Below, piece after piece: positions 1,426 to 62,220 of a DNA stretch of 63,603 bases (positions are counted from its first letter, which is position 1; each line of letters begins with the position of its first letter). Under the pieces are notes generated by a model. It worked only from the letters and a program-made list of their open reading frames with translations. It was not told the DNA's origin and did no database searches. This stretch comes from Catajapyx aquilonaris (taxonomy: Eukaryota). The stretch covers positions 1 through 63,603 of the forward strand of contig JYFJ02002067.1 of NCBI GenBank assembly GCA_000934665.2, in the 5' to 3' direction. A program made the translations under genes and the position numbers.

Positions 1426-4188
<2,763 letters not shown>

Positions 4189-14800: not shown

Positions 14801-17800
14801 GATTCACATTCGTCCTTGTTGATCTCACAACTGGAAACAGAAATGTGTCAGTTGTGTTGCTCAGACCCCTTTCTTCAGCCACCCCCCTCCCCCTCCCCTG
14901 TGATTGTAACACTTATCACCTGATGCTATGGAAGAGTGTCAAAATTTACAACAATTAAATTTGTTTTAACAGGCAGTGAGTTAAGTAGCACTTTTATTCC
15001 TGCCTGCTCATCACTTAGAGTCTTATAGTATCTAATCTTGTGGAAGATCCACTGCAGCAATTTTTCCCTAGAGTTTTCCTCGCACATCCTGCCATAGGTA
15101 CCGGTACCCCTGCACTTACAATGGACCGGTGTATCCATCAATGCACTGACAGGTGTAGTTTGCTATGAGGTCCTCACACCGGATGGTTGAGTTTTGGATA
15201 CATTCCGCATTTTTGCATTCATCTATGTTGACATCACAGACCTGTCCCTCATAGCCAGGATCACAGCCACAGTGGAAGTGTACAGAGGGATCTAAGCAAC
15301 TTGACCCATGTTGGCACTCGTGGTCATAGCAGAGGGTGCAGCTGACAAATAAAGGGAAAAATATGGGGTTAAATTGTGCAATCACCACCTGAAAAAAATA
15401 TGAGTCAATAGCAGTAGATATTAATACAGTATTTACAAACCCATCTCTACACTGGCACACCTCACTATACCAGCTTCCCGATATATCCATCACATACAAA
15501 TTTTCAAACATCTGATCATCCCAGATTTTACAGACATGCTGCTCTAAGCTCGAAAAAATATGGTATTATTTCTCCTGAGCTTTGTGTCTCAGAAAATAAA
15601 GTACAGTACTCATTTTATGGTGCACACAGGTATTTACGCGGAGGGACATATGCTAACAAAGATTGAGCACATACTTGTAAGAAACGTATTCCTTCTGCCC
15701 ATCAATGTGGAATGCATTGGGAGCCATCTGGTGAATGAACTGGTGGTTCATATCATTCAGCTCCTCAAGGGACACAAATGGAAGTAGGAGTCCTCCTATC
15801 CTGACCTGGTCCAGGCAGCCTCGGAAATGATTTGCATGTGTGCCACTGGCAGTGTGGACTCCAACACGTGGAGTCAGGGATGTTGACGATGAGAACGAAT
15901 CAGATGTGGCAGTGTAATAGGTATATTTTGGCGGAGTCCAGTCTTCTCCAGGGCCACTACCCATTGTTACCTACATGAAAATGATTTTAGCTCATTGCAT
16001 GTTGCATTTCTTATGTTCTGTAACATCATCCTCCATATTCCCAAAAAAGTAAAAAAAATTGTGCCTATTTTAGGTTTTTTTGTGCCTATTTAGGTGCCTA
16101 TTTGAGGGTTTTTTCATGCCTAAAAATCCGGACTCTGCTGATGAGTTACAGTACTCTGTACATGTAGTATTAACATTTATAACTCCATAGTACTTTGAGA
16201 GAGAGAAAAAATGGAAGCTGACATTGCAAAAGAGGGAGTAGTTCATAGGGGATGGCAAATCCCGCATATTCCAAATGCTTCCTGTGGCCATATGATTAAC
16301 AAAGTTACAAAATCTTGGTCTCAGACAGAACTTGCGTAGTTCTTGCAAACAAAATTCAATCCAAATCCTTGTTTAAGAAGACCACCATGATTTTCCCCCT
16401 TCCCATATGTCTTCAGAAAGGTATCAATATTATATGCTAGGTATTAGAAATGATCCTCACCTCTCCATGGAGGACTAAATTCCTGAAAGCCTCTCGAGAG
16501 GTCTCTTCTTTGAGCAACACAACATCTTGGCTGTCCATCTGCCCTGTGATCTTGGTGTCAAACACAAGTGTGACATCATGCCAGTTTCCATCAAGTGCAC
16601 CTTCCCCAAATGACCCATTCACCACATCTTCCCCATGGTCCAAATTCCATTCCATGTACACTCCATTATGATCCACTCCAATCACAAGAAAGTTGACCTT
16701 AGCAGCCGCAGGTACATCATCTGCTGGGATGTCTGTGGTGTGTGCAACATCTGCTGACTCTGAGACATGGTTACTCTCGTAGATGAAGAGAACAGCACCC
16801 CCAACCTGGCTGCGAAACCGGAAGGTGATGTTTTCAATAGTGACAGCATCACCATCTGTCATATTGACCACCAAGTGCAAGGAGCTGTTGGCACCATTGA
16901 AGGTGGCAGAGGACTGGCACTCAAACCCTTCGTCTATGCTTTTGCATGTTGTGGTCTCAGGGCACTGTATCCTGGAGCAGAACTCTGTTTCCTGGCAAGT
17001 CTTCCCTTTAAAGCCTGCTGGGCAATGGCACCTGAGAATGGAGCAAAAGAAAGCATGTGATACCTGTGACTTGGGGAAAAGGGCAGTAGTATATTGAATT
17101 CCTAGTAAAAATGAATGATTGATTTGTTTTTCTTAATGGTTTCATTAATAACTCAAGCTTTCACTGAGTCGCATGAGCATGACTTCTGGCAGGTACAAAA
17201 GTAACTGCTGTTAGCCTACTCTCAAGAAAAATAATCAGAGTGGTCTGCAAACTCACACAAAGTCATTCCATGTGACCTGGCACGTTCCATTGTTAAAGCA
17301 GGGATCTGCAATGCAGGTGTTGTCAGATAATTCTCCTCGAAGCAGGCTCGCCCTTTCCACCTTCCCTAGGGTAGGTGGCATCCTAATGGAGCTGTCATTC
17401 AGTGGGAAGAATTCCACTATCCGCTTCTCCTTTCCAAAAGTAACCTGCAAAACACCCAAAATGATCAACTCAAGCAGCATTTGCTTTCCATACGAAATGT
17501 CATAGGTGGAATTATTATAGGGTCCATTTGGCTCAAATTATGTGTGTAAAAAATTTAACTTGATTGCTGGAATTATGGGACTTAAAATGATAGCTTTTTG
17601 TGTTCAGAACCACTTGTCAAAGTCTCAACTAGCCTACATGTAAATCCAGAATTACATCACAACAGCTTAGTTACTTGGTCTTCTGTTAGCTAAATATAAA
17701 CAGTATTTGAATTTAATGGCTGACTTGTTATCTTTATGATAACATGAATGAAAGCATCTGCCAGAATTATAGCACAGTATAGCCATTTTGCGCCATTAAA

Positions 17801-20800
17801 AGCCTAACTGAACTAGAATTATAAACTGCTTGTAACAAGTATCATAGTTCTGAGCAATAAAAATTTTATTAGGCGTAATATTAGCCTCTTCATCCTTCCC
17901 CTTCAGCAACCAATAAAATAAGTAACATAAGAGTCATGGTCTCATTACATGAAATGGCGCTCTTTCAATATTCTGATCTTGCAGTGACACATGATCGCAT
18001 TGGTCTTCAACCACTTTATTGTTGTTGATTGTTATTATATTCAGGGATGGAAAAAGAACTGCTTCCTTCCAAGAAGCGGTTCTTTTTCCATCCCTGATTA
18101 TATTGATATTTAAACTTGGTTGTTAAATTTTTAAGCATTTCTCACCTGCACATCTTGCATGACTCCCTTGAATGGCGTATGCCTCTCTTTCTCCAAGGAT
18201 GCTGCTCCCATTCCTGAGGGTGGGATAGCACTAGCTTGTCGCCTAGATCTGGGATCACTTCCTTCCACTCCTACAACTCCAGAGCTTCCGCTACCTCCTC
18301 CAGTTGCACCAGTTGGAGTTGCAACTGGAATTGCTCCCAGGTACATAACACGTGGCTCTAATGGTGCCAAGATACTACTGGTCTTCCTGAAATGCTCTGT
18401 CCCATTGATCTGCACCTGCAGCAATGTGGCGCTGCGATTGACCATCACCAGATGGTGGTTGCCATCATTCAGTCGCAATCCACTGACAGTTATGTTTTCC
18501 CCTTGCTCCTTGAACCTCATCTCCACCTTCAGCTGGCCAGCCTCCAGCCAAGCAGCAACGTAGGAATTGCCTCCTTCCCTCCACGGGCTCTGACCCGAAT
18601 CAAACATGTCACCCAAGTAGAAGAGGAACCCAGACAGATGCCTAGTGCGAATGAACATGGAAACTGTAAAGGATGTGTTGAAATGGACCCTGGTGGTGGA
18701 GTTGATGGTAACCACTACCATGCTGTCATTGATGTTTTCATGACTGAATGTGGCGGCTGTGTAATCTGAAAGGTAGCAGGATGTTATGTAGTAACTACAT
18801 AGTAACTTTTTCTTTACGTTAATGTTGTCCAATATAATGGAAACGTGTCCATTATGGAAAACTTTCATGGAAAGGAGTGATTACACCGCATAGCCTATAG
18901 GTGTCACTGATATTATTATTGTTGGTTTTTACATTGTTATTGAACATACTACCATAAAAACTAATCAAGCCAATTAACTTACTGTATTTGCAGGTGTCTC
19001 CTAAGTATGGCCTGCGGCAACTGCAAGTAAAGTTCCTCCAAAGGTCAGTACAGTTTCCATTGTTCTCACACGGATTGGGTACACATTGAGGAGTACGTGG
19101 GCACTTCTCCTCTACGTTGACCAGTTTTAGATAATTTGAAGGTTCTGGAATTATCAGTCCTCCATTGATGTTGATATCTTCCATGCAACCAGCAAAGAAA
19201 GGTGTGTTGGGCACCAGAGGTCTGAGGTTTGAAGTAGCCCCACCCAATAGTGTGAGATTGAAGCTGGTGTGAGTTGCATTGATGGTTTCAGCAGGGTTCA
19301 CTGAAGAGATGCTCAGTTCATCATTGGCCGAGAGAACCAAATGGGTGATATTGAGGGAAACCCCAACGGACTGCCAGCTGTCATTGTTGAGCCCATTTCC
19401 AATGTAGATACCTTCCCAGCGGTTTAGCAGGCTGGTGTGAATGTTAAGCCTTCCATCTTGAAGTTCAAGGCGATAGTATGTAATACCTTGCCCTAATGCT
19501 AACAGTACACTGGGGAGTGTTGTTCGGAATCTGAATCTGAGTTCATACCCTTCATCACGTTCTGACTGCATTATTATGTAAGATGATCCGTTCATGGACA
19601 CTGTGGTAACTTTCTCACAGAGATCACCATTAAAACCATTCAGGCATGAGCAGTTGTGCCCATGCTGTGTTTCGTTGTGCACAAATGGTATACATGTACC
19701 ACCATTGATGCACTGTATACCATCACATCCAATCAGAAGTACACTGCAGTTCTTCCCTCCATAGTCTGGAGGGCAGCTACATTCATAGTCATTGACTCGG
19801 TCTTCACAAGGTGCATTCAGGCAGGGATTGTATCGTGCACATTCATCTATCTCTATCTCACATCGGCTGCCTTCATAACCTGGCATGCAGCTGCAAGTGT
19901 ACATGTTAATCCCATCGATGCAAGCTCCATGGTGACACTCGTTGTTCACGCAGTCATCGATGTTAATTTCACAGTTTTTCCCCTGAAGGCCATCAACACA
20001 CACACACACATATCCAGCTGAGGTGGAAACATCGAAATGCTCAAACTCAGCCCGACCCAGTGTGCTGTTCTCGTAAAGTGTCCTATTTGAGAGCTCCAAA
20101 CATGTACCACCTCCGGAGCATGGATTTGATTCGCATTCATGTATGTCCTCTTCACAATTCTTCCCGGTATACCCATCGTGGCATTCACAGCGATAATCCT
20201 TCACTAGATCAACACATGTACCCTCATTCATGCATGGACTGGACTCACAGTCATCTATACCACTCTCACAATGGTCACCGTAGAATCCAGTATTGGTGCA
20301 GTTGCAGGTGTAGTTGTTCACCTGATCAATGCACTGGCCCTCATTCATGCATGGAGCAGACTGGAAACAAGTAGTTTTGTTACTGCCATGTGTAAGCCTT
20401 TAAAATTGTTATACATACCTCGCACTCATTGATGTTGATGTGACACAACTTTCCAGTGTAACCAGGAGGGCAAACACATTTAAATGAACCAATTCCATCG
20501 ACACATGTTCCACCATTTTCACACAGGTTTGGATTGCACTCGTCAATGTTGATATCACAGTCACTCCCTGTACAATGGATATAAATTCAAACTGCTGTCA
20601 ACATGATAAATATTACACTCTTTTTAGCAAATTTGGAATTGTCATTTGTTGAATACCATGCATGTATCCTTGCATATCCAGAATCAGAGACAAAGAGTAT
20701 AAAATAAAATCTTGTGTTCACAACTAATAGGAAAGAAGTAAATGTAATAATCTACAAATAGAAAATTGGCGCACCTGAAAACCCCGTTTGGCATTCACAC

Positions 20801-23800
20801 TGGTATCCATTCACTAGATTCTTGCATGTTCCATTGTTGAGGCACGGGTGGGACAGGCACTCATCAAACTCAAGCTCACAGTGGTCACCCGAAAATCCTG
20901 GGCGGCAGAAGCACTCGTAGGATCCTATTGCAGTAGCAAAAATTATCAAAAGAGTTTTATAGGTAGCCATTTCATCTGCTGCACTCCACAATGACTCAGA
21001 GGAGACTGTTCACCTCCCCACAAGAGTCACTGGTAAATATACACACACATGTAATGCAAGCAGGTGCATGACAGAACAATGGGACTGGTCTCATTAATAT
21101 GAATGCGTGACTACACTAGTCACGCTTAAGGACCCATTTGTAAATGACCTGAAATCACAAGAGACGCTATGCCATAAATTAGAAGACAATTTAATCCAAG
21201 GATCCAAGTCCAAGGCTTTTCCCTGCAGTACTACACCGTAAACAATCATTGATGCAATCTTTCTCCATAAAGTTATATTGTGGAGCATCATTTACCCAGT
21301 CGTAAATAATAATATACATGTCGTGTGATTATTCAGTCTGAAACTTGTGCTGTACCAGGCAAGATATGTGTAATAGTTGTAATTCTGTTTGTCTGTATTA
21401 TAACTAATGGATGTTACTGCTTTACTGCTTTGCATCTCCATTACAATAAAAAGTTACAGATTGACTGTAAGTGCCAGGAAGATAGATTAACCACTTCCCA
21501 GAAGCTGGCCATAACAAAATGCTCAAATTGTCAAGGTAATGGCGCAAGCCTTAGTTTACTTGAGGCATTTATCTATTACTATTAGACATAATAGTTGGAC
21601 AGAATTTCCAATAACTCGTGAAAACAAATCCATCACAACAAAAATGGTAGATATTAAATTTAGTGAAACCTATCTATACAAGGCGTTTCAGAGTCACGGG
21701 TCAAGCGCGCACAAGAGGATGGGGAAAAATCGTAGGTGGCGACAACCTGGTCGGTTTAATGACACAATTAGACATATGGCAGTAATCAATTTATTTATTA
21801 CGGCCATATGGTGTGACATCACATCCTTTCTGTTCGAGTTGACTGGTGCGGACTGGCAGGTGCAGTAGTGGGTTGAATCTGGTTGAATGGCTTTTTAGCC
21901 TTGCAGGTTGCACTGAAAAAGACGCTCTCCTGCTATACTGTACGCACTACTGTACAGTTAGTACACTACTTTGTACAGTACCCTACCGGTATAGCAGGAG
22001 AGCACCTTTTTCAGTGCAACCCGCAAGGCTAAAAAGCCGTTCAACCAGGTTCAACCCACTACTGCACCTGCCAGTCCACACCAGTCAACTCGAACAGAAA
22101 GGATGTGATGTCACACCGTACGGCCATAATAAATAAATTGATTACTGCCATATTTCTAATTGTTTTATAAAACCGACCGGGGTTGTCGCCACCTGCGATT
22201 TTTCCCCACCCCCTCGCGCGCGCTTGACCCGTAACTCTGAAACACCCTGTATGGTGTGTTCAAATGAAACAAAAAATTAGGCAATATCTCAAGAGCTATT
22301 TGTCTCAGCTGAGTGCTAGTGGTATATCTGAGTAGGCACTTGCATGGCTAATTTTCGTGCAGAGTAGTTAGTAGTCAGTATGTATGTAGTAGGAACGAGA
22401 GCATTTTATGCAAGTCTCCCAGGGCTATGGATTTGTCCAAGCAGGCACAATTCACCATCATCCCTTTTCCTCATCAAGGAAGGAATTTCACCAGTGGACA
22501 TTGTCCATTGGATGTCAAGGGCAGGTGAAAAAGCCTGTTTCAACCACAACACCTTGGTGTAGAAAACCACTAAGGAAATGTTCTCTAGAAAGGTCCTCCA
22601 TGCACACCTGTCTTGACAAAAATTCCCTACACCTTTTGAAGAGAGTCTTGTGGTTGAAACAGACACTCCCATGGACCTTCTGCATCCAATGGACAATGTC
22701 CACTGGTGCAATTCCTTCCCTGATGAGGAAAAAGGATGATGGCGAATTGTGCATGTTTGGAAGAATCCATAGCCCTGGGAGACTTGCATGAAATGCTCTC
22801 CTGCCCATTAAATGCATTCAGACTACTCTGCATGAAAATAAGCCATGCAAGTGCCTACTCAGAGATACCACTAGCACTCAGCTGAGACAAATAGCTCCTG
22901 AGATGTTGCCTCACTTTTTGTTTCATTTGAACACACCTATTATATATCAAAATTACCCTGTTCTGAAAAATTCTCAATGTAGTGAACAGGTGTCCATTAT
23001 ACAGCATTTCATAATTTAGCTCACATCCATAGCAGCAGAAATTTCACACCCACAAGCTCAGGGCCCTGAGGGAAAGGGTGCATATTCAGTTTTCCTGGCA
23101 AGCTCAGGGATAATGCTAACTTGATGCAGGAGAGTCCATGACATTTCAGCTGATATGGGTGTGAACTAAATTATGACACAGTTCATGTCAAAAGTGCACT
23201 AAAATTCTAGAACCAGAATGAAACAAAGTTCTGTTATTGATGAAGTGTCTCTGATAGGCAAGTTAAATTGCATCAGCTAACCCCACTCCATTGAGAAACA
23301 TAATGAATTTTTTGTCTATTTGCATTTTTGTGAGGGATATTATTCTGCGGTGTATTTTATTGCCCTTTGCACACTCTTGATCATGGGAGTATTTTATGAA
23401 ATATTGTAGGATGCAGATGAATCACACATTACAAGATGCAGAATGCAGTTATAAAATGAAGTGGTGAAGGTGCAATATTATGCCATACATGAACAATATC
23501 AGGGAAGTCACAATAAGCACCATCACCTGAATATAGCTCCCACCCTTGTAGAACAGAATTAGGAAGTCACATAGGTTGTCATTAATTTGTAGCAAGGTGA
23601 ATCCTTTTCTTTTTACAGACAAGTCTGAACCAATAAACTACAGTGCCCTATCTCTTGTGTAATGTCGTATGCAACGACAGCATCAAGAAAGTGATTACAC
23701 CTGCTGAGTAAGGTAACAGCCTTGGCAGATAAGCTACAAATACCCCAACGATAGAAATACAGAAGTAGAAGCTATTCACTTTGTCAAGTCGCTAGAAATA

Positions 23801-26800
23801 TCTGGCGTTTCCAAAATAAATCACGAAAGCTGTGGCTTTTCTGTACTAACATGCAATAGAGTGTATTTAAAATTAAACTTCAGTTTCCCTGATGAACAGA
23901 CTCACCCTGTGTGTTTTGGCAGATCCCATAGATACAAGGAGACCTTCCCTCACACTCGTCAATGTCTGTCTCACAATTGTGTCCGGTATAACCTGCCTTG
24001 CAATAGCAGGTATAGTTATTGATCCCATCCACACAAGTACTGCTGTGCTGACAAGGCCTCGAAGCACAATCATCAATGTTAGAAGTGCAGTTTGCACCAT
24101 TAAATCCAGCTGGACATCTGCACTCATAACCATCCACAAGGTCCACACACACTTGGCCATCTGTGCAGGTCACTCCAAGGCAGTCATCCTTGTTATGCTC
24201 ACACTGAAGTCCTTCGAATCCCACAGGGCACTCACAATAGTACTTGTGGTCAGGTGGACTCGTGATGCATGAAGCCCCATTCATGCAGGGGTTGGAGGCA
24301 CATTCATTGTAGAGCAGCTCACAGTTGCGACCCATGTAGTCAGAGGGACACAGGCATGAATAGTTGCCCACCAGGTCACGGCACTCCGCACCATTCTTGC
24401 AAGGGGCCGAGTTGCACTCATTCACATTAATCTCACAATAGGTACCTGGTAAAGAAAGATGATAGTTGTACCAATTGGCTGACATTTTAGTTTGAATCCA
24501 GTGGGTTCATTAATCCTCACCTTGGAATCCATACAAGCATTGGCAAGTAAAGTTGTCCATTCCATTGATGCAAGAAGCACCATTCTGGCATGGGCTGGAT
24601 GCACACTCATCAATGTCCTCACTGCAGTTCTCATTGGTCCATCCAGGCTCACAGGTACAGCGGTATGATCCAACCTGCAAAATAACAGATAAATAATTTC
24701 AATGTGAAATGAATAACGCTGGAACCAAGAGAGAAATACTCACAGTATTTTCACAGCTAGTAGCATGTACACAGTGCCGTTCCTCAGTGCACTCATCGAT
24801 GTCTTTTTCACACCAGTGACCTTTGAAGCCAGGTGGGCAAATGCAGGTGAAGTTGTTGATTCCATCTTTGCATGTTCCACCAGATAAGCAAGGCTGGCTC
24901 TGGCATTCGTCTATGTCCACCTCACAAGTAATTCCTGATAGAAAGTGAATGGGGAATGCAAGCTGAGATAAGTGCTGGATATCTTACAGTTTATGAAAAA
25001 CACTTTCCCTACCATGCCTAGTATGCAATTTATCATTGGCCTGCTATGTCAGTCAGTACAAGTGGAATTTTGTTGGTCATATCCTAAAGTACACTTTTAA
25101 AAATTTGTTACATTTTTGGACAGACAAGTGAGCTGGAAGAGACTGAAGGGAAATGCGGATTGGATTCTATTTCTAGTCAGTCTGTACTATCTGTCAAAAA
25201 AATAAAAATTCGGGGCTATGCAACCATCAGCACTCGCCCAAGGTGAAGTCTGCATAAAAAGATAGTTGCACAGCTTCAGGATACGTTTAGCTTAACATTT
25301 TTTTGACAGAAGGAACTATATGAGATTTTTAAAGTGATGCCACCTTTTTCAATGCTTTATTTATTTATATTTATGCACTTTTCTCCCTAAACTTGCCTAC
25401 AGCAACAAAAATAAAAACTCCCAATGCAAATGCTGCTTATCAGAAGCTAAAATGAATGCTTGTATTTTCCATTGTTTCTATTCTTAGCCTGCCATGAACT
25501 GCTACACAAAGAATTCAACTTCCCTCCGCCTACAACTGCGTTTTACGACCGAGAATAACATCAGATAAAACTCAATAAAAATCCGACTGTACCTGAGAAG
25601 CCAGCGATGCAAGCACAGTGAAATCCATCCCTCCTGTCGGTGCAAATCCCACCGCTCTGACACGGATTATCCTCGCACCGCAAATTCTCCGTGCAGTTTG
25701 GAGGTGTACCTAAAGCAGCAACAAAACCACTGTTAAAAGCAGGTGACGCAACATGGTGAATGCAGCCGAGAAAATACCAGAACACGGCTTCCACCCATAT
25801 CTACGAATCTGCTGGCCTCTTCCTTCAATCACCACTGCCAAGTAAGACACAACTAGGAGCACTATCACTAAGCACTTGTAGTTCATGCCCATTGCTTCGG
25901 ACTGAGCGAACAGAACTGTAGCAGGGCTCCTAGGCGACTGGCGCCAGCAACACCTTTGTTTTCTGGCTGTTGTGCAGCATCCCGTCTGCAGCGGAATAAT
26001 TGTGCCAGGAAGTACCTTGTTTGGAGTTAGTCATCCAAAGGCACGGTTCGCTCGGTTACAAAAGAACGCGGACATTTGCACACACATACACACCCAGGTC
26101 AGGCCGGCTCGGAGGAAGCGAGTCCACTAAACATTCGTTTGTGACACACACTTGGCATGCTCGGAGGCGGGGGAAATAATAATAAAAAAATAGCACAATG
26201 CAGTGCAAAGTTCATATCTGGCCGGCCTTGTACACTGTACGGGCATTTCGATTTAGGAGCACATGCTAATCGCAAGGCTGCTTGAGTGGGGATTGGTCAT
26301 GTTCCGATTTGATGGCGGCACGCGCGTGCCCGAGAGAACTTTACACCTTGCAGACATACGGCCTACATGCCTAGACAGTCAATGTATGACTTCACCAGAA
26401 AACAATTGTTCATATATCTCCGGTAGACACGACTCATTTCCAATAAGAGTTGTAATGCCGCGAATTACAAATCCCCCTTTGTGTAACAAGAGCTGACTGA
26501 CCTGCTCCACGGCAGATGCATTGACCCTCGTGACACAGCATGTAGTCCGGACATCCACTCCTATTGCTGCATCTCATACTGTCCACCTCACAGTGGACCC
26601 CCTCGTGTCCAGGTTGGCAGAGGCACTTGAACCCTCCCACCAGGTTGAGGCAGGTGCCTCCGTTCGTGCATGGAGATGAGCTGCACTCGTCCACATGCTG
26701 AGAGATGACATTTGAAATGACAGCATTCTCTGTCAACAAGTCACCGCAACTTACCTCTCTGCAGTTAGGTCCGCCATATCCGGGTTGGCACTGGCACTCG

Positions 26801-29800
26801 TAGGTTCCGTATCTCCTGAAACACCTGCCCCGGTTCAGGCATGGGTTTTCTTGGCACTCGTCCACGTCTTCTTCGCAGCTCTGTCCTTGGTAGCTAATGA
26901 CAGGGCGTACAGGTTGGAAAATCATTTGTCATCTCAGCCGCCACCTAAGGGTGTGTCAACTTACCCAGTGTCGTTACAGTCACACTCGTACGAGTTGATA
27001 CCATCAGTACATACGCCACCGTTTTGACACGGTCTGGAGGCGCAATCGTCAATATTTTCCTGGCAGTCCACTCCAGAGAATCCTACAATACAACAACAAT
27101 AGCGGCCATTTGATAGTCGATGCTCGGAATAAGGTCGTGTTTACCTGGTGGGCATCGGCATACATAGGTGTGAGTGATATTGGAGATAACGCACGATCCG
27201 TTATTTCGACACGGATTGGCTTGACATGCGACACTTTCCAACACCGTCTCGCAGTAACGACCTGAAGGTTGAAAACTATAATTAGAACCTCCGTGTTTGG
27301 TCCGGCATATCAACAGGTTTTGGGTGTGTCACCAACCTGTGAAATGAGTTGGGCAAAGACAGTACGTCTGGTTCCCGGATGAAGCTTCCTGGCATGTTCC
27401 TCCATTTCTACATTGGGAAAATTCAGGGCGACTACACAGAGGACCTGTAGCAAACAAGTGTATCAGAAAACCCGTACCATATAAAAGCTGGATAGATGAA
27501 GCAAATTGTGTTAACCATTGAGAGAAAAGAGCACACACATCATGCGAACCAGTGTTACAGTACGATTCTCATGGGTTAGATTTTTTAATGTTACAACACA
27601 ACAAGAGATACATCATCTGCGGATGTGAATGCAGGTGCATAAGAGAGAATTCACCTGTGTCGATCTCACAGTCGGAGCCAGAATAGCGTGTGGTGCAGCG
27701 GCACTCATAATCCTCATACCCGCCCATGCAGTTGCCATGCCCGTGACAAAGTTGTCCAGAGCAGTTCTCTAGCTGGAAGTCACCTGCGGGGGGATCAGCA
27801 GTGCCGAGGGTGTTTTTGTCTCTTTTTTTGTTTTGCCGACATGCATCAGCACGTAGATATGTGCATTCACAACACGTAGGTTAGTAGGGCCCGCGCTCTT
27901 ACAACTGTGGCAAGTTCAACGCCCAGCAGCTCGTGTGAGGGTGGGAGCATCCACTCGGCTCAATTACACAACTTTAGTTCAGAAAAATTTCGACATAGTG
28001 AAAAGGAGAGAACACAGAAAACTACTTGTTATCTACGACGACTCTCAGAGTAGGAACAGCAGTGCAGAGGAAATTACCATGCTGGTGTGTGAAAACACAT
28101 ATTTGTCACAAATTATCTCCAAACATGTATACACATAGAGGGGTGGATGGTACTAACTGCAATCGAATCTGGCCGGAATAGGGCATGGCCCCCATTTGAC
28201 CCTGGCACTTGTGGCGTGACCACTGCTCAGCTCCACGCCAGGACCCTCCAGAATGCAACCCACATATCTCTGGCCCACGGTCAATGGGAAGCTGCTCTCC
28301 AGCAGGTTGGGATTGATGATCTCCGGCTGAATAAGACCACAAAATGTATCCATCTCGTATGTGTCATACATTATGTGTACCTACGTTGTACGTCGCATTG
28401 GCGACCAATACGCTGAACCTGTCCACGCTGAGTATGAGTTGACCCAACTGGTATTGCAAGTCGATGTCGTGCCATTTGTTGTCACGAAACGACTCGCCTA
28501 TATCAGTCACGTACATACTCTCTTCTTCTTGCACCGTGAGTCGCAAAGTCGAGTTTTCCAGCAGGGACAACCGGAAGGAATTGCCCTCGCCAAAGCCAGG
28601 TCCCTTTTGGGACAAACGCAGTTATAGCACATGTCATTGTCATAGTAATTGGGTATTCACCTGGTTGAGTAAAGTTCCATTTGCACAGGTACGAAAGCTG
28701 AGGCCGATGTGACCCCTGAGTGAGCTGATTCCTGGTAGACGGACATATGAGGAGCCGCCGAAGAAGCCCTCCGAGTGAGTGAAGGGCGCCGTCGATGGCT
28801 GCGACAATGATGGCACTGCTGCTACCGCCAACAAAAATGCTGAAAAGGTATACAAAAATTGGGTATTGGGTCGTTGCGTGACACCACTCGACCACAGGCA
28901 AGGCCATTCAGAGTGTGGTACACTTCCCACCTGCACTGGTCCATGAGAAATGGGCTTTCCTACATGGGACTAATTAAATTTTCTTAGACCAGGGAGGACC
29001 ACGTCTATCACGCGATAATAAGAAATAGACGACCCTATTTTACAAAACTGTTCACGTCACATGATACGCATGTTACAAATATTTGCGTGTGGCAAGCCTG
29101 CTGTAAATACAGTACCATCCTTTTTACCATTTCCCACATTAGCTCTACCTTGCGTGACACCGTACCGCACGGGTGCATAACCTACGGACAACATATGGTT
29201 TTCCTGAAAAAACTGTGGGTTGCCTTTGTGAAGTCCCCATCAAAGTCAACGTGCAACTGTAACCCCGCTAACTGCTCCTTGTGAGAAATTGGACCCAAAC
29301 CACCCGGCGTTACTTCACACCCCAATCCAGCCGTAAAAGAAAAACCCGGTTTTTGGTTTCCGACCGCCCTCGTTAGGCGCCCGAAATTTTTGTTTCGATT
29401 TACAACCCGCCTCTAGCCCAGGAACCGTGCTCCAATGCTTCGACTGGCCAATGCCCATACAATGGAAGGCCATGTGTGCAACGTGGACACTAGTTTGTAA
29501 GGCTGTCAAGTGGGTGACCATTTCCTTGATTGAAAGCAGGTGGCCCCCTTTTTTTTGGACCCTCCCTCAGGTTCCTGGCTGGACCACTGTTTCTTCTCAA
29601 ACTGGAGTCAGGGTCGGGACCTAATGGGCCGTGGACATAAAAGCAGGCATCGTGTTACTTTGGGGAGAAAAAGGGACGGTTTTCAAGGCTTTGGAGTGGT
29701 GTCACCAACCTGTGCACCAGTTCGAATTCAGGACGTCACCATGGCGCAATAGGTACAAAAACGCAGGTAAATCGATGGGGCCAGTCACCCGGTTGCACCT

Positions 29801-32800: not shown

Positions 32801-34852
32801 CCAAAGAGCAGTCTTCCGTGGTTCCGGCTGGTTAGTTGGTGGGGGAGGAGGTTGGAGGTCACGGAGGTTCCTCTCGGTTGCATACAGTCAAAGACATTTG
32901 TCTTGTATTGTCTGGCATTGTTTGTTGTCAGTAAAAGGTCCCAGCAGTGGTTGTGGATGAATGAGTTTAAAATATTTGATTTGTACACATTATTTTTGCA
33001 CCTGAATATTCAGGAAAGAGAAAACCGGTCGTTTCCACCATAAAATGAGCCAAATTAGGTTAATCCCCACATTTATTAAGGCTCGTCCATTCTTAGTCGG
33101 TTTCCATTAATAGGCTTTCAGAGCGAAAGTGTCTTCCATGTCCTGGAAAAAATACGGCTTGTACATTTCAGTTGTTACAACCAGAAGTGCCGTTCCTGGC
33201 GAATATCTCAAGTGATAATCCCTTCTCGTTTGAAGTGAAAACGAATCTTGATCCGACAGCGAACATGGTCCGTTGAGGTCGTGACTAGGTTACCGAAGTG
33301 GGGAAAAAAACGACATACGTATAGCAAAAGTGTGTAAGGGCAGTTAATCATTTTCCTTTCGTTTAGTCTGAGGCCAAAGTCCTGGCATAACTTCTTGCTC
33401 TTCATCACGCCTTTCGTACCGTTTTCTTTCTGGAAAACTAACCTCCAGTTCTCAAGCAAAGGCCACTTCCTAGACACGTTTTTTTTTTCTCTCTCTCTAA
33501 CCGCCTTGGGATGACACTAGAGGTACCGTATATACGTCATGAGTCGCTTACTGTCCTTTTTCTTCACTAAAAGTAAATTCCTGGCCACGCTTCGGAGCTA
33601 GATACGCCCCGGCAACTTCCACCTTTTGTGTGACTCACCGCATATCCGGTAGTATTAAAATTAAGGGTAGAATAAGAAAGGGTTGGGCTTCTGTCGTACC
33701 CTGGAGGAAGAAAGGTGACCTTCGCAGGTGCGAGCTGACATGTCGCATTGGGCAAGACTAAATTACGCTGGTTTCGTAAACGGTAGGCGGCGCAATTGTT
33801 GTTTAGATAGAAAGGTTAGTGCTCATGCAAATTGCTGAAGACTAAAGAGTTGTGTCATGATCGTGCTGACTCTGCGGTCATTACAATGCCGGTATGGTCG
33901 TGGGAATAATTCTATGTCGTTGTACGGTCTATTTTCAAGCATCTGATTTGCTGTTTCGGCCATCTGTAACGATGCGTGTAAATCGAACCATCCGATTAGA
34001 TAGGCTCTTAGATAAGCCCCTCATATGTATTTCATGACAGGGAATCCCAACGTGTAAATTCCTGCGAAATGACAGTTTCACAGTACCCGAGTTGTTAATA
34101 TTTTTTTTTTTGTACACAATTGTGTGGCAACAAAATAGTTCCGTCTGAGTGAGCATGATGAAGCGAGAGAAAATTTACATGCAGCTAATCCCGCATATAT
34201 TTTGTAACAATGTTTACCTCACCCTATCGAAAATATTATAGCCCTTGTACCTTGTAATTTCGCGAATACATAAAAGCAAATGAGTCATCACTTTTCTCAT
34301 TTTGGAACCGTTTTCACGACGTGTGTAACGTACAGTGTCAGTGTGTCAGCTCGACAAGGAAAATAACCCGTCCTATCTGGCAGTAAAAGTTTTTGTAGTG
34401 CAACAACATCCGGAATGGCATGCGAATCCTCAGAATTTGCAATCGCAGCCTGGCTGGGTCAATGGAGCCGTCAAGACAAAAGACTACGTCAACCACTACG
34501 AAGGCACCGAACCCGAGTACGGTGACACATTACTCGCGTCAAGTGTTTACAAAATATCGGCATTCAATTGATGAAAGACGAGATGGTTGGGGGCGTGAAG
34601 GCGCGTGCCTTCAAAAGTTTCATATTACACTTGATTACAATCAGGGAAAGCCGGCCGATTCTTGCAACAATTGCGTGCGGGTGTATATCCGGCGCAACAC
34701 TAGAATATCCGCCATATTCACCTGAGCTCAGGTGCGACAGACACCCCCCCNCCCCCCCCCCCACAACACACCCACGCGGTCATACCCTCTCCTGGCTATA
34801 GAATGTAACACTCACTGGTCAGCAGCGGTCTTCTCCACTTGTTGTGATCCAT
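11868..34852 (-). CDS. crb: Crumbs, full length (~2317 aa): signal peptide, N-terminal LamG-like domain, EGF repeats, three further LamG domains, TM, cytoplasmic FERM- and PDZ-binding tail
   Basis: 28 in-frame exons totalling 6954 nt: 34816-34852, 28661-28839, 28385-28603, 28158-28326, 27655-27783, 27337-27444, 27145-27261, 26965-27082, 26755-26893, 26502-26697, 25593-25709, 24744-24934, 24521-24674, 23906-24445, 20775-20924, 20419-20567, 18983-20360, 18146-18765, 17257-17444, 16461-17031, 15675-15970, 15120-15341, 14643-14830, 14439-14584, 14230-14371, 14008-14162, 12151-12264, 11868-12089. N-terminus [25 protein letters not shown] (exon 1 assignment inferred from phase and signal-peptide fit). 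Diagnostic tail [37 protein letters not shown]. Confidence 0.95.
12403..13479. mobile_element. piggyBac-type non-autonomous fold-back element (long imperfect inverted arms) in a crumbs intron
   Basis: TTAA-CCCCTTCGGTAC at 12403 and GTACCGAAGGGG-TTAA at 13479. Left arm ~12407-12735 mirrors ~12780-12867 plus 13232-13475; the right arm is interrupted by a SINE. Confidence 0.85.
12868..13215 (+). mobile_element. tRNA-derived SINE nested in the piggyBac-type element
   Basis: Pol III A box TGGCGCCGCGG, B box GGTTCGATCCC, (TTA)n tail, and a 16-bp target-site duplication TATTTTAAAGTATTTC at 12852-12867 and 13216-13231. Confidence 0.88.
18042..18096. mobile_element. 55-bp hAT-type mini-element (hairpin) in a crumbs intron
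   Basis: 24-bp TIRs CAGGGATGGAAAAAGAAC(T/C)GCTTC with one mismatch, 7-nt spacer, and a perfect 8-bp TSD ATTATATT at 18034-18041 and 18097-18104. Confidence 0.85.
21677..22251. mobile_element. Tc1/mariner-type fold-back MITE, ~575-bp near-perfect palindrome
   Basis: TA-CAAGGCGTTTCAGAGTCACGGGTCAAGCGCGC ... GCGCGCTTGACCCGTAACTCTGAAACACCCTG-TA; the arms mirror each other to a centre near 21960. Confidence 0.88.
22250..22939. mobile_element. mariner-derived fold-back element made of two inverted copies of the element 5' end
   Basis: Ends GGTGTGTTCAAATGAAACAAAAA / TTTTTGTTTCATTTGAACACACC. Mirror ORFs 22406-22789(-) and 22408-22791(+). Frameshifted peptide [62 protein letters not shown] resembles the mariner N-terminal HTH. 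Confidence 0.85.
25778..25892 (-). CDS. crb: Candidate alternative first coding exon of crumbs (own signal peptide) inside intron 10
   Basis: Encodes [38 protein letters not shown]. Phase-1 donor TCTG|GTATTT and a 68-nt intron join it in frame to the shared exon 25593-25709. Initiator-like TCAGTC at 25900-25905. Confidence 0.7.
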
Positions 34853-35169
34853 GTCCACGGAACAACAGTCAGGAGGAACCGAAATGTGAGGCAGTGTCCA
34901 TCCCGGCCACGAAAACGCGACTAAATTCAGATTCCCAGAGCCCACTGCCACTTGTTTCCATTCACCTGAGTGACGTCAGGTTTCCCTCCTCCACCCTCCC
35001 CCTCTGGCACGAACTAACCTCCTCCAGGCCCGATGCATTCCTGGCGTTAGATGGCAGACCAGTGTGGGAAAGTACCGGCGTGACCAGGGTTCTGTGGTGC
35101 TCAGGAGGTGCTGGGAGCCATCTAGTGGAAGGGGCCGAAGAGTAAGGAGAATTTACTGAAATCAGAGAG

Positions 35170-35175
35170 TTTATT
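35170..35175 (-). terminator. AATAAA polyadenylation signal of the crumbs-like secreted gene
   Basis: TTTATT on + strand, ~120 nt downstream of the TAA at 35293-35295. Confidence 0.55.
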
Positions 35176-35292
35176 GCTGCATACAGTACAGATACAGTAG
35201 CTGACACGTTTAGTAGGTTGGTCAAACAGTAGTACCCGGATTCACATCCGAAGAACCTGTGGTACCTTCCGGAGCTAAAAAGACCACCGTTT

Positions 35293-38200
35293 TTATGATA
35301 GGCTGCTGCGAAAGTCGCATAGCTTTCCGATGAATCCGTCTTGACAAACGCAATGGAAGCTGCCGTAGTCGTCCACGCAGGTACCGCCGTTTTCGCAGGA
35401 CAGGAACAGACACTCGTTGACATTTTCGCTGCACGTTGTACCTTCATGGAAATTATGATTAGCCAAATGTGACAAAACTGGTATACGTCCTTACCGATGA
35501 ATCCAGGAGCACACGAGCACTTGTAGCTGTTGACCATATTGACGCACGTGCTGCCGTTCATGCAAGGTTGGGACAAGCACTCGTCGAACTCGAATTCGCA
35601 AAAATGTCCCGCATATCCAGGCCGACAATAGCACTGGAAGGAGCCATCAGTGTTTTGGCAAATACCATTCTTGCAGGGACTTCCCTCCGCGCATTCGTCA
35701 ATGTCTTGTTCGCAATTCACGCCTGGACAGCATAATAGGACGTAACTAAAGGGTGGAGAAAGGTCATCATGGGGTGACTCACCTGTCCTCCCAGGAGGAC
35801 AAACGCAGGTGTAATTGGACACGCCTTCGACGCATGTAGCCGAAGAGTGGCAGGGAGATTCGGCGCATAACCTTGGTTCTCCGCATGTTGGACAATCGGT
35901 CGGCTTGTGGCAGAGAGCACCCTGGAATCCTATCGCATGATTATTCACACAAGTTGTGGGGGACTATTGGCCTGTTGGACACACCTGGTGGACAAATGCA
36001 GGTGAAATCAGTCCCGCTCGATTCGCAAGTACCGCCGTTTAAGCAAGGGTTGGGGGTACAGTTATTCACTTCCACGTTGCATTTTGCACCGGTCCAACCC
36101 GGTGCACACTTGCATCTGTGGGTGTCTCCCTGGAATGATGATTGTTAGCAATATATTGAAGGTTGGAGATAGGCGGCACTTACATCGTCGATGCATTCTA
36201 GGGAGTGCGGACCGCAGGGGTTGGCAGCACATGTGGAGTAGAGTAATCCGCACCATGGACCGGTGTACCCTTCCGTACATCTACATACGTACCCTTGGGT
36301 GAGATCAACGCATGTGCCGCCGTTCAAACATGGTGTTGAGCTGCAGTCGTTCGTAGGAAGTTCTGTTTGGTTACCTAAATGACAGACATAAAAATGCTAT
36401 TAATACATGCTCGGTCCACAGTGATGTCATGCTGCTACACCTTTATTGCACTTGAGTTCCTGGCACGTAGATTTGAACCTGAGGCTGGCGTTGTTCTCTT
36501 CGCCACCGTGTAATCTGAGTCCAGAGCTTTCCAAAAGACAGCCCATGAAATCATTTCCGACAACTAGGGATGAGGTAGATGAAAACAGACCAGCAGCGCT
36601 CTGCAAATCAAAATGATAAGTTACATGCCAAAATAACGATAATTTACCTTAGTATTGGAAAGTTACATTCTATTAAACTTATTGGAAGTGTAAAAGTAGC
36701 TTTTGTTGTAATATGATACAGGCGGATACTTTTCGTGTGGAACTTATAATGACATCTTTGTATCATTCCTGCACTCAGCATATAATTGACGTGGGTCGCT
36801 CTGCAAAGGGTATAAGCTGGTCAATTGTTGGGGAGAAGATAAAACCGGGCCCAATAGGAAATTAGGTTGCCCCATACTGATATGCGTGCATTTTTGGCAA
36901 TGGATTAATTCAGTAGACCCTATGCATGATATACGAAATGTAATCCCACACGTTCCGATAAATAGCTACATCATTACAGCATGTTTAAGATAAAGACGTC
37001 ATCACCAAAAATTTTACATATCACTCCATTTTGGAACATTTTTCTTCACTTAAACTTACTGTAGGACATGGGCCCTAGCTTTTCATTCTCATAGAGTAAT
37101 AGACTCACAATAATACTGTCAAAATATTTAGGAGTGAAAGGTTTCCCAAAAATGTCGGTAAGAACATTAATTTGCTAAAATTTCGTCATAACACAAGCTA
37201 AAATTATTATTAATTTATGACTTGAAAAAACAAGCCCTTTGTGAGTATATCGCATGTGTTAGAGGCAACGCAAAACCAAGGGCGATCGCACTGAATCACG
37301 TATGGGAAAACAATGCCCTTTCTCGCACGTATGTTATACAAGTTCGCCGTATAAAAAATTTGTGTGGAAAAAGGGCAACATTTTCGATACAATCTATACT
37401 ATAGTAACACTGAACAAGTTGTCTAGGGAATTACCCTGAAAGCAATGTAAACCGCTGTGGTTTGCACTTGGTCCACTTTGAGATTAAAGGCTCCGTTTTG
37501 ATACCAAAGCTCGACGAAATGCCACTGACTGTCATTCAGGTTATTTCCCACGTGGGTAGCGATGTGTCGGCCGTGCCTTTGGTCGTACACTCTGAGAAGT
37601 AATGATCCGTTGCTAACCAGTTCAACCTCCAGTGAATCGCCATTTGTCGCCCGCTACCAAACAAGGGAGAAAAAAAAGTGAGATAGGTGAGTTGGTTACG
37701 CCAAGTTGTTTTTTTACACTCTCGCAATTGCGCAGCGCAATTTATGAGAGGACCTAAAAAGTTTTTTGTGTGCGTATTGTTCATTCATCGAGTGTCACTG
37801 CAAAAATATCTGGCTGAATGCCAATTAAGTATGCATGCATTCGGTACATGATCAATGTACAAATGAACGTGACACCTGCAACTTATCGCTGATAAAAAAA
37901 AACAGGCTTTAAATATTTTTAATGGCATTTGTTACTTTTAATGCTCGATTGGTTCAGTAAGTGCCACTCTGCATTTTGAGTATGACCTTCCACGTGTGTC
38001 TTCTATAAACTATTGTTACGCAACGATGACCTGCGGGACACGCGTGCATATCTCTTTGTGCTGTGTATACAGAGGACCAGGCTTTTATTATTGGCTTTAT
38101 CCTTGAGTTACGATGTGGTAACAGAGTGACCAATCTTGAACTATACCCAACCTGTTGCAAGAGAGATCCGGGATGACAGGTGCGAAAGCTGAACTCGGTG

Positions 38201-38858
38201 CGATCGACAGCAGATGAGATCGGAGGTAGAATGAGTCTGCTGGATCCATCCAGATACAACTCTCCCAGCGAAGGTGGCCTCGGATGTACCGGTACGGCAT
38301 ACAAGAGTGCTACTAGAATTATGCCGACTTAGCGAATGGGGTGGAGGAAAAAAAACAGTAATGAATACCTGGTGCTAACTAGGTTAGTGATTATCTGAAG
38401 ATGAGTCTGATTTAGTGCAAAAAGTTGGCGGCCTTGATACAAGAGTTAGGATCTTTTTGTAAAAAAAAAAATGAAGAAATTTTTCCTTGACAAATATTCA
38501 GTAATGTTTTTTACTACCCATTTTGCGTTTGGGTTACGAGGTCAGTGTTTTTTTGCCGACTAATGATTTGCAAATCATTTCTAAAACGTTTGAAAAATAT
38601 TGAGTCAGGCATTTCCCTTTCTTCTTCAATAATATACTCAAGGTAAAGAAAAAGGGATGCAACCTTGACAAATGTCGCCAGGGGTAGCTGATTCTTCCAC
38701 ATTCGATCAGAACCATAAACAAGCAAATTGCGATCGTAACTATTTTTATTTCGAGCCACCCTGCGAAATAACTCCCAAACTTCTTTCACCCAGCACTTCC
38801 ATCAATCTTGATCAAAGTAACACTTTCTGACTACCAAAAGGGTCATCTTACCTGTCAT
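35293..38858 (-). CDS. Crumbs-derived secreted protein (~473 aa): signal peptide + Crumbs-type N-terminal LamG + 7 EGF repeats, no TM or cytoplasmic tail
   Basis: Nine in-frame exons totalling 1422 nt: 38852-38858, 38152-38327, 37435-37653, 36441-36600, 36184-36374, 35985-36129, 35783-35929, 35495-35722, 35293-35441. N-terminus MTVGIILVALLYAVPVHP. LamG motifs FSFRTC, LNDSQWHFVELWYQNG and GNDFMGCLLESSGL parallel crumbs [22 protein letters not shown] and [14 protein letters not shown]. Ends GFIGKLCDFRSSLS*. Confidence 0.85.
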
Positions 38859-40121
38859 CCTGAGTTGGATCGCCTCTTTTTCAACTTCCCGCCTGCTCTC
38901 CTAGCAAGACCAGCAACCTTTTTCTTAGAAGCACTGTAGGTCCAGGGGGAACGTAACCACTTATTACGATTCGCCCAAGGACATTGTGTACGATAAAAGG
39001 GTGCTGTTAACCGCCCCCACGAGGAGAAAGGAGAAAACTACTAAAGAGACGGATGGATGTCATCCTGGCTGGGTAGGCAACCAGGCAGGTTGACATGATC
39101 CAATAGATTTTGTAGTATGGATTTTATTCAGCACACAATTTTTCTTTCCCAAACTATTTCATTGTAAAACAGTGACAGGGACATCACAGACAAAATTTAA
39201 TGAAGATGCCAACTGATGCTTCAATTTGGCGTCTGATTCGAATGTACTGGACATCAATGGGCATCAACGTCGACACGTTTTTATTATTCAAATAAGTTAA
39301 TAATATTCTGTTGAACTACTGACCGTTGAGCCAAGCACTACTTTCCACTCTCATTCCTATGCCATAACATATTGCGATAATTGTACGGTACAGCAATCAA
39401 CCATTTAAAAAATTACTTCACAATCTGGAAATAGGGTGTTGCAATCGGACCTGGTATGGTTATCAACAGTGTGGCCCCTCCCATCATTTGCAAATCATCA
39501 TCATCATCTCGTGCGACTCTAAATTAATCTAAGTGTCATCAGCCTTCCAACAATCACGGCGAGTTGAAGATGGATGGATTTCGCCCCCTAAAAATTGGCA
39601 AAACCCCCATGAAGTAGCCAGCACAGGGCGGGTTATATCCCTGACTCCTGGATGGTCCATTGGCTGAGCCAATGAGACGTAACAAATGTATACAGTAATA
39701 TTAATTATTAGTTATTAATATTATAGGGGAACAAAAATCAGGCCTGAGCCTGACTTCAAACTTGATGGCGTGTCCACGCCCAAGAGGTCACACTACGTAC
39801 TAGAGGAGGCCATGAAAAGGTTCGCTAAAATCACATCCGATGGACGTGCTTGGCTGCAATCCGTTTTTATCATTTCTATTCTTTTTTTTCGTTTGTGCAA
39901 GATTGCAGAACATGCCCCGAAGGAAAGGATCAGTCAAGATATCACTACTTTATGATTGTATTCTGTTACATTGTCTATAACTCTAAAAACTCAGACAAAG
40001 TGTTATTGAATATAGCTTCAGTCAAGTGCAGTGAAAATGGAGTGTTCAAGATCAGGCAGTGTGTCACCGCCACGGGTAGTTCTACCAACTGATGCGTAGC
40101 CTATACGTTTTGGCCTTGTTA

Positions 40122-44841: not shown

Positions 44842-45443
44842 CCTGGAGTCGGACCTGCACAAAATTCAGAAGATTATTAGACAGATGTATATGGAGGTCG
44901 CATTGGCTACATACTCCAGAGCAGCACAAAATTTTGCGTGCCAGAACCCTTTGAAGGTGGAAGTGTGTCTAGTCTAAGTTAGTGAGGGGTCGGATACTCC
45001 TGCAAAATGCACCAAATTCACCCTAGATTCACCTGATTGTCCCACCCACCCCTTGTGAACTGCCCTGTTCTCTTCCATATAAAGATGGCAAGCTTTTGCA
45101 CTAAAACCAGTGCTTTTTTATGTAATAAAACTGAAAGTATACGTGACTTGAATGCATAGCATGCTGTGGTTGCACAACGTGCAAACTAGGGCTAGAAATA
45201 GTAACAGTGCGGCATCAATGCCACATAAGAATTCCTCCTAGGTCACACCTGTAGAACATCCAGATTCTCTTATTTACTCGTGATAACCCTGCCACCTGCA
45301 CGCAAGCCGACAGTGCACAAATTTCAGCTGGAATTAACCTGAAGCCTTTCGTTGGCAGGTAGCCCCCGTCTGTAACCTAAAGGCCGTTCTACCACAGAGT
45401 GCAAGCAGGCAGGCAGGCAGGCAGACTACGACTGGTCAGAGCA

Positions 45444-49400: not shown

Positions 49401-49488
49401 AGACCTAGAGAGAAATGACGGGTCAGAGCAAAAGCCTTACTTCATGTCCAAGGATCTTCTGGCAGTAATGGACAAGAAAAATAAGTAA
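46409..49488 (+). CDS. Choline transporter-like protein (SLC44/CTL), tandem copy A, 12 coding exons
   Basis: MDEHG|DPEYQGPIKNRGCTDIICMLLF...YHIGTLAFGSLI...MCAVHGKNFCTSSKDAF...IDTLFVCF|EDLERNDGSEQKPYFMSK; short GT-AG introns; TAA at 49486-49488. Confidence 0.9.
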
Positions 49489-62180: not shown

Positions 62181-62220
62181 TGTACAAGTACGTGCAGTAT
62201 GTGCAAGATTATGTTTGATA

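Follow-up and report, generated by a model that had tools for sequence, protein, structure and literature searches.

A probable secreted-type Crumbs paralogue, derived from parts of its neighbour crumbs, in Catajapyx aquilonaris

The subject of this study is a short, crumbs-related gene on contig JYFJ02002067.1 of the Catajapyx aquilonaris assembly GCA_000934665.2. We analysed positions 1 to 63,603 of this contig, a stretch of 63,603 nucleotides (nt) that we refer to as the window. Two crumbs-related genes follow each other on its minus strand: the short one, here called mini-Crumbs (38858..35293), and, downstream of it on the same strand, a complete crumbs gene (28839..11868), which encodes a transmembrane helix and the conserved cytoplasmic tail (...EERLI) and ends with the codons for ERLI and a stop at 11868..11882. 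The original prediction for this DNA, made from the letters alone, had placed an intact nine-exon open reading frame (ORF) of 473 residues directly upstream of crumbs, and both the frame and its position were borne out. The mini-Crumbs frame runs from an ATG at 38858 to a TAA at 35295-35293 and comprises 1422 nt in nine coding exons (473 codons and the stop), with GT-AG borders at 8/8 introns and an AATAAA at 35176-35171, 117 nt beyond the stop.

The exon model was derived from stop-to-stop frames, with splice sites set by hand. Exon 1 (38852..39094) contributes a 5' untranslated region (UTR) of at least 236 nt, the ATG and a total of 7 coding nt before a phase-1 donor; a contig piece covering 38852-39094 is joined to exon 2. 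Exon 2 (38152..38327, 176 nt) encodes a hydrophobic signal sequence and the start of a LamG domain, including an SFRTC motif, and is flanked by the contig joints 38327/38852 and 37653/38152. Exon 3 (37435..37653, 219 nt; joint 36600/37435) holds the LamG core and matches Laminin_G_2, while exon 4 (36441..36600, 160 nt) completes the domain, as given by the gene model and the contig joints. The remaining exons encode EGF modules and are supported by Pfam matches, contigs or both. Exon 5 (36184..36374, 191 nt) contains EGF1 and the first half of EGF2, ending in phase 0 three residues past the third cysteine of that module, and exon 6 (35985..36129, 145 nt) the second half of EGF2 and most of EGF3. 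In exon 7 (35783..35929, 147 nt; contig joint 35928/35984, cut +1), EGF3 ends and is followed by a linker of 14 residues with two extra cysteines and then by EGF4. Exon 8 (35495..35722, 228 nt), with an EGF_CA match, encodes EGF5 and EGF6, both of the calcium-binding type. Lastly, exon 9 (35176..35441) carries EGF7 in its coding part (35441-35293), the stop codon and at least 117 nt of 3'UTR, and is covered by a contig piece at 35176-35438. An alternative acceptor for exon 7 at 35921 was rejected, as it breaks the frame; the weaker-looking acceptor at 35929 restores the frame and agrees with the RNA-derived contigs. The 5'UTR (38859-39094, minus strand) contains short upstream ORFs, one of about 29 codons starting near 39094, which may bear on translational control.

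The transcript evidence comes from one public sequencing run of a single study (X1), which is stored as assembled contigs and was aligned to positions 19700-39699. X1 behaves as RNA-derived, because its contigs skip GT-AG introns in two genes: the 12 joints listed comprise nine within mini-Crumbs and three that correspond to crumbs introns. A check of splice junctions in RNA, which the original prediction had suggested, thereby came out in its favour, as all eight predicted introns of mini-Crumbs are present as contig joints, including the one that uses the acceptor at 35929. A contig of 1137 nt starts in exon 5, crosses four introns, passes the stop codon and ends at 35176, the first base of the AATAAA, and another of 419 nt joins exon 2 to exon 1 and reaches 39094. 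The ninth joint (36600/37530) reflects a minor alternative donor at 37530 within exon 3; it shifts the frame and leads to an early stop, and this splice form is probably non-productive. No X1 joint connects mini-Crumbs to anything below 35176, in a run that leaves 27704-35040 uncovered.

The encoded protein consists of an N-terminal hydrophobic signal, one LamG domain and seven six-cysteine EGF modules, the number of modules that had been predicted. Scanned singly against Pfam, exon 3 matches Laminin_G_2 (PF02210) at 6e-10 and 40.1 bits (cut-off 22.9), exons 2 and 4 have no match, and exons 5-9 match EGF, hEGF or EGF_CA (PF00008, PF07645), with an EGF_CA match at 1.4e-16 for exon 8. The chain contains 48 cysteines: the EGF modules account for 42, the LamG domain for four and the short linker for two. 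The motifs DIDEC, EFDEC and NVNEC, of the calcium-binding type (D/N-x-D/N-E/Q-C), open EGF5, EGF6 and EGF7. It also has seven N-glycosylation sequons, and the consensus patterns for O-fucose and O-glucose addition are matched at several sites. By hydropathy, residues 1-17 form the only hydrophobic stretch (11-residue mean of 2.85 at residues 1-11); elsewhere, the highest 19-residue Kyte-Doolittle mean is 1.15, and the chain stops seven residues after its last cysteine. Neither hydropathy nor inspection revealed a transmembrane or glycosylphosphatidylinositol (GPI)-type stretch after the N-terminus, in line with the anchorless, signal-bearing product originally proposed. Given the signal sequence and the lack of a transmembrane segment, cytoplasmic tail or GPI-type C-terminus, mini-Crumbs should enter the secretory pathway and be released.

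The relationship of this protein to Crumbs is clearest in its LamG domain. In the window, this domain matches the crumbs exons at 28839-28158, with 34% identity over 164 aligned codons. These three head exons of crumbs (28839-28661, 28603-28385 and 28326-28158, with the next exon starting at 27783) represent the paralogous source of mini-Crumbs exons 2-4: the boundaries are homologous, the middle exon measures 219 nt in both genes, and the entry phases of mini-Crumbs exons 2-5, 1-0-0-1, recur in crumbs, just as had been noted at the outset. The identity of the neighbour itself is evident from its 459-residue exon, which has 892 matches among database proteins at E<=1e-20; the best 120 of them are nearly all named Crumbs and are 39-56% identical, the nearest database Crumbs among the matches listed being the one at 56%. 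When compared with these 120 foreign proteins, the mini-Crumbs LamG domain matches 108, and its best matches fall on their N-terminal LamG heads with 72-83 bits. Internal Crumbs LamG domains reach no more than 35 bits, and generic LamG proteins (the best library matches of exon 3) no more than 47 bits. With profiles built only from foreign Crumbs heads, mini-Crumbs scores 101.7 bits when 37 heads are used and 113.2 bits when 12 are used, as calculated for a database of 5.8 billion. From these comparisons, the LamG domain of mini-Crumbs is recognizable as the N-terminal head of Crumbs, and it did not cluster with another LamG family.

Such a head is present in 109 of the 120 Crumbs proteins, with insects, crustaceans, spiders and ticks sampled. 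The 11 headless proteins comprise two from bivalves (P0111, P0130), seven with lengths of 1608-1971 residues and, as two longer models, P0049 and P0061. Since the two bivalve proteins have no head, the N-terminal LamG domain may be an arthropod (or ecdysozoan) addition to Crumbs. Vertebrate CRB1 and CRB2 begin with EGF modules and are not known to have an N-terminal LamG head.

The EGF modules of mini-Crumbs originate from a different part of the ectodomain. A colinear alignment of the full protein with the N-terminal ~470 residues of Crumbs is possible, but the EGF part alone fits a more distant block far better. Of 104 Crumbs proteins, 103 have their best EGF match 280-720 residues past the head; the median score is 189.5 bits for the best block, compared with 142 bits for the block adjacent to the head. 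We therefore rejected the reading in which EGF1-7 of mini-Crumbs correspond to EGF1-7 of Crumbs. The description of the gene as a 'head-only' Crumbs thus stands for the LamG domain, which is the Crumbs head, and fails for the EGF modules, which are not those following the head. Because 11 modules precede the best-matching block and seven lie within it in four full-length Crumbs proteins, the block corresponds to EGF12-18, which are encoded in the window by the crumbs exons that we labelled c (24445-23906), d (20924-20775) and e (20567-20419). X1 joints at 20360/20419 and 20566/20774 lie in this part of the gene, and so does a crumbs intron segment (21900-22950) where X1 contigs are deeper, show several letter differences and have many loose ends, as for a repeated or mobile element.

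Within this block, the assignment of the last four modules is secure as judged from the alignments. The mini-Crumbs EGF modules share 136 of 277 residues with exons c-e, with three small gaps, and EGF5-7 are 62% identical to their crumbs counterpart. A profile of EGF15-18 scores mini-Crumbs EGF4-7 at 175 bits, compared with 203 bits for the crumbs gene of the window. Furthermore, the intron between exons 8 and 9 matches the intron between d and e, the last exons of the two homologous stretches are both 149 nt long, and the stop codon of mini-Crumbs occupies the place of the last codon before the donor of exon e.

For the first three modules, an origin from EGF9-11 is the most likely, with EGF12-14 as the alternative. 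In crumbs, EGF9-11 are encoded by the 191-nt exon a (24934-24744) and the 154-nt exon b (24674-24521), which we favour as the source of mini-Crumbs exons 5-6. In the window, EGF1-3 align to these exons with a score of 255 and no gaps, and to EGF12-14 with a score of 244 and two gaps; among 65 foreign Crumbs proteins, EGF9-11 score higher than EGF12-14 in 53. The EGF9-11 profile gives 110 bits for mini-Crumbs EGF1-3, equal to its score for the true EGF9-11 of the crumbs gene in the window, while the best mini-Crumbs domain reaches only 72 bits with the distinctive EGF12-14 profile, as against 147 bits for the true EGF12-14. Exon 5 and exon a are also both 191 nt long, run from phase 1 to phase 0, and end at the same unusual phase-0 intron, three residues past the third cysteine of an EGF module. 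For the intron that follows, the positions in the two genes differ by no more than nine bases. With EGF9-11 as the source, the linker of 14 residues and its two extra cysteines would be the scar of an EGF12-14 deletion. As EGF4-7 match EGF15-18 and EGF1-3 most likely match EGF9-11, mini-Crumbs is a mosaic partial duplicate with internal deletions, composed of the head, EGF9-11 (favoured) and EGF15-18 (secure), and all joins between its segments lie at phase-compatible boundaries.

The original prediction had further described the gene as an old, diverged duplicate under selection, and the codon comparison with crumbs agrees with this. Third codon positions differ at a proportion of 0.67-0.70, and the synonymous divergence (dS, NG86) is 2.6 for the LamG domain and not computable for the EGF modules, meaning that synonymous sites are saturated. 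The corresponding nonsynonymous divergence (dN) is 0.77 and 0.51, respectively, and the codon is shared at just 50 of the 136 identical residues. Yet mini-Crumbs has kept an open frame of 473 codons and its 16 splice sites, together with every one of the 42 EGF cysteines, the four LamG cysteines and the three calcium-binding-type motifs. Retention of frame, splice sites and structural cysteines in the face of saturated synonymous sites indicates, at the level of the codons compared, that the copy is old and under purifying selection.

To date the duplication relative to other lineages, we built trees from 42 of the 120 listed Crumbs proteins, chosen for taxonomic spread, leaving out five without a head match and, for the concatenated trees, dropping five more rows with ambiguous block orthology (four holometabolan insects and Gryllus). 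The crumbs gene of the window is placed outside the sampled insects, both in a tree of the conserved region and in the head trees, which marks the host as a non-insect mandibulate arthropod; the protein library contains no close relative of it. For mini-Crumbs, the tree of the LamG domain alone (39 rows, 173 columns) leaves the position unresolved, and the approximately unbiased (AU) test keeps a sister relationship with the crumbs gene of the window (p 0.279). This pairing appears at no more than 52/26 with the LamG domain and all seven EGF modules, and at 88/84 with the LamG domain and EGF15-18, a data set from which the ambiguous EGF1-3 were removed (34 rows, 334 columns). In the latter tree, the branch of mini-Crumbs has a length of 1.86, compared with 0.57 for crumbs, corresponding to roughly threefold faster evolution. 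Because the best tree pairs mini-Crumbs with the crumbs gene of the same genome, the duplication was most likely lineage-specific and took place after the split from all sampled arthropods.

Searches for counterparts in other genomes returned no orthologue. Exon 3 yielded 29 candidates among longer proteins, none of them significant, and 21 matches among 1.84 billion representatives, of which the 10 that were examined are neurexin/Caspr-like proteins or unrelated repeats. A search of metagenome contigs with exon 3 gave 454 pattern matches, none of which was confirmed, and the ESM Atlas gave generic LamG clusters only. A profile of one decapod-like Crumbs head and three head exons, run against 8000 candidates, passed none; known Crumbs proteins failed as well, so this search was uninformative for want of a positive control. 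Moreover, the exon 3 query has just 73 residues and the crumbs gene of the window is at most 56% identical to the listed Crumbs proteins, so orthologues at 30-40% identity would be missed. These searches are thus weak, and they do not establish that such a gene is absent from other arthropods. Likewise, no secreted Crumbs paralogue of an arthropod was found in the literature searched, whose scope excluded subscription-only papers.

Taken as a whole, these observations are in our view probably best explained by an expressed, intact secreted-type gene that arose by partial duplication of crumbs, and we hold the identity of the gene, as described above, with considerably greater confidence. In this scenario, a partial tandem duplication of crumbs would have produced mini-Crumbs. 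The copy would have retained the 5' exons encoding the signal and the arthropod-type LamG head, which would have been joined in frame, via phase-1 introns, to EGF exons from the middle of the ectodomain, and a stop codon would have ended the frame where the homologue of crumbs exon e ends.

Several results weigh against one or another part of this account. X1 is the sole run with the sequence, comes from one study and is not labelled as RNA, its RNA nature being deduced from the spliced contigs. The signal peptide and the missing anchor are assignments made solely from hydropathy and by inspection. For EGF1-3, one colinear alignment that takes in EGF12-18 scores almost as well as the favoured one (the 244 and 255 given above), and the positive control discriminates weakly for EGF9-11, true EGF9-11 being recognized in 43/65 proteins, compared with 65/65 for true EGF12-14. 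As for the timing, the 88/84 pairing lies below the starred support level, and the AU test on the alignment with all seven EGF modules also keeps a placement of mini-Crumbs outside all pancrustacean Crumbs proteins (p 0.259). Finally, the pairwise dN/dS includes the crumbs branch, so that rates are not assignable to branches, and with no orthologue found, the constraint has no independent support across species.

Regarding its function, we tentatively prefer a mechanism in which mini-Crumbs would act as a soluble competitor or modulator of Crumbs contacts, although we regard it as possible rather than probable. The secreted protein would bind the ectodomain of membrane-bound Crumbs or of its partners (e.g. 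Notch) in the apical extracellular space, and would then compete with or tune Crumbs-Crumbs interactions, as the vertebrate secreted isoforms do. A secreted protein with a task unrelated to Crumbs competition is about as likely, be it a structural or adhesive component of the apical extracellular matrix, similar to Eys/Spacemaker-type EGF-LamG proteins, or a ligand for another receptor. The roughly threefold longer branch and the head identity of just 34% would fit a change of partner, and the seven sequons and the O-fucose and O-glucose pattern matches are features found widely among EGF proteins of matrix and signalling. On the other hand, the closest relatives of mini-Crumbs in sequence are segments of Crumbs rather than other EGF-LamG families, and the known precedents for soluble Crumbs ectodomains are reported to act on Crumbs itself (PMC7108746, PMC5786287).

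A more fundamental challenge concerns the question of whether mini-Crumbs is a gene of its own. The two units could form one complex crumbs locus with a promoter near 39.1 kb, in which the mini-Crumbs exons represent an alternative 5' cassette with its own terminal exon and the short form is an isoform, as in vertebrates. Exon 1 would then be spliced either to exon 2, giving the short secreted protein, or past the cassette to crumbs exon 2, giving membrane-bound Crumbs. Exon 1 itself tells against two separate genes in this respect: its coding part consists of the ATG and four further nt and ends in phase 1, the phase in which crumbs exon 2 begins, and joining the two would still result in a hydrophobic, signal-like N-terminus. 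Given this match in phase, a promoter shared with crumbs is possible. In addition, the two units share a strand, the crumbs gene has a first exon known from prediction only, and just about 320 nt separate the AATAAA of mini-Crumbs (35171) from the predicted crumbs ATG (34852). Yet this predicted exon (34816..34852, minus strand) is a plausible first coding exon for an independent crumbs gene: it has an ATG, a charged start and 12 codons plus 1 nt, followed by a good GTGAGT donor in the right phase (phase 1). Furthermore, the sole joint seen from exon 1 leads to exon 2, a weak argument insofar as the 5' exons of crumbs are not covered by contigs. We consider a cassette within a single locus unlikely, and the short protein product, and with it the biology, would be identical in that case.

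That mini-Crumbs should be no more than a transcribed leftover of a partial duplication, devoid of function, appears highly improbable, for while it is a truncated, fast-evolving copy for which the searches found no orthologue, and its minor splice form (donor 37530) shifts the frame and ends early, its main splice form exactly matches the open frame, and 473 codons, 16 splice sites, 42 EGF and 4 LamG cysteines and three calcium-binding-type motifs are intact despite saturated synonymous sites.

The role of the Crumbs ectodomain is among the less understood parts of the polarity machinery, and it is unclear which of its modules serve homophilic binding or the regulation of Notch. If mini-Crumbs acts on Crumbs, it would point to the modules that matter and provide a natural reagent for testing the non-cell-autonomous control of polarity. 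In its boldest form, which strikes us as rather unlikely, this idea would make mini-Crumbs a dedicated, long-kept gene for a diffusible regulator of apical polarity and adhesion, which weakens or re-patterns the Crumbs-Crumbs or Crumbs-Notch contacts of neighbours and whose kept modules, the head together with EGF9-11 and EGF15-18, mark the long-sought interaction surface of the ectodomain. If the duplication is confined to one little-studied lineage of non-insect arthropods, as suggested by the tree, its general reach is limited, and mini-Crumbs would mainly be a clear case of the birth of a mosaic gene from exons of compatible phase.

The surroundings of the two genes hold a number of further features. 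Just upstream of mini-Crumbs lies a gene of the CAP/cysteine-rich secretory protein family (40576-41605, minus strand), with Pfam CAP matches in two frames, followed by an ankyrin-repeat frame (43783-44865, minus strand). Further on, the plus strand carries at least two tandem choline-transporter-like genes (46400-52800, possibly also 55700-60000), with Pfam Choline_transpo matches at 48269-49380 and 51937-52752 and similar N-terminal cysteine-rich exons at ~46900 and ~50700; with these, the window carries other tandem duplicates too. A DUF4817 helix-turn-helix frame (62219-62659, plus strand) may represent another repeated or mobile element, besides the one in the crumbs intron. Downstream of crumbs, a single frame that combines the activin receptor domain with the GS motif and the kinase marks a gene for a TGF-beta type I receptor (6267-7424, minus strand), and the kinesin-associated protein KAP is represented by one exon (1426-1764, plus strand).

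Several other known families combine or contain these domains. Exon 3 of mini-Crumbs shares a generic core around the '...LND..WH...' strand with the LamG domains of neurexin and Caspr, but these are multi-LamG membrane proteins of different architecture, and their score for the complete domain does not exceed 47 bits, compared with 72-83 bits for the Crumbs heads. Eys/Spacemaker and SP2353-type proteins are secreted matrix proteins with EGF and LamG domains that act in the apical extracellular space; they were not seen among the 10 examined of the 21 matches of exon 3, and are set apart from mini-Crumbs only by its stronger match to Crumbs.

The comparison with arthropod Crumbs, a type I apical polarity protein represented here by the neighbouring gene, is a different matter. 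Mini-Crumbs has the same LamG head with the SFRTC motif and four cysteines, and two of its introns, the one preceding exon 5 and the one separating exon 8 from exon 9, sit at positions shared with crumbs. Unlike Crumbs, it has no EGF1-8 and, on the favoured reading, no EGF12-14, and it is devoid of everything past EGF18, namely the three internal LamG domains, the remaining EGF modules, the transmembrane helix and the tail of 37 residues that holds the FERM- and PDZ-binding (ERLI) motifs. Full-length Crumbs proteins have 29-33 EGF modules by the same pattern, as against seven, with no internal LamG domain, in mini-Crumbs, which in turn has the linker of 14 residues with its two additional cysteines and a rate of evolution roughly threefold higher. 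By its architecture, mini-Crumbs thus stands outside the Crumbs family in the strict sense, but is a Crumbs-derived paralogue.

To our knowledge, soluble forms of Crumbs in vertebrates exist only as splice isoforms. Like mini-Crumbs, mouse and chick CRB2S, mouse Crb1s, Xenopus Xer1 and the engineered zebrafish Crb2b-sfEX are anchorless pieces of the ectodomain, and they are released from cells. Both CRB2S and Crb2b-sfEX reportedly compete with homophilic Crumbs binding and weaken adhesion or polarity. CRB2S is described as a secreted protein that competes for homophilic CRB2 binding and destabilizes junctions, with Crb1s and Xer1 cited as further secreted forms (PMC7108746), and the secreted zebrafish Crb2b ectodomain as interfering with Crb-based adhesion between cones (PMC5786287). 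Unlike mini-Crumbs, however, these vertebrate forms are splice isoforms (or a transgene) of crumbs itself rather than products of a separate duplicate. While soluble ectodomain forms were thus already known, the new aspect is a soluble form of the Crumbs ectodomain that is encoded by a separate, mosaic duplicate of the gene.

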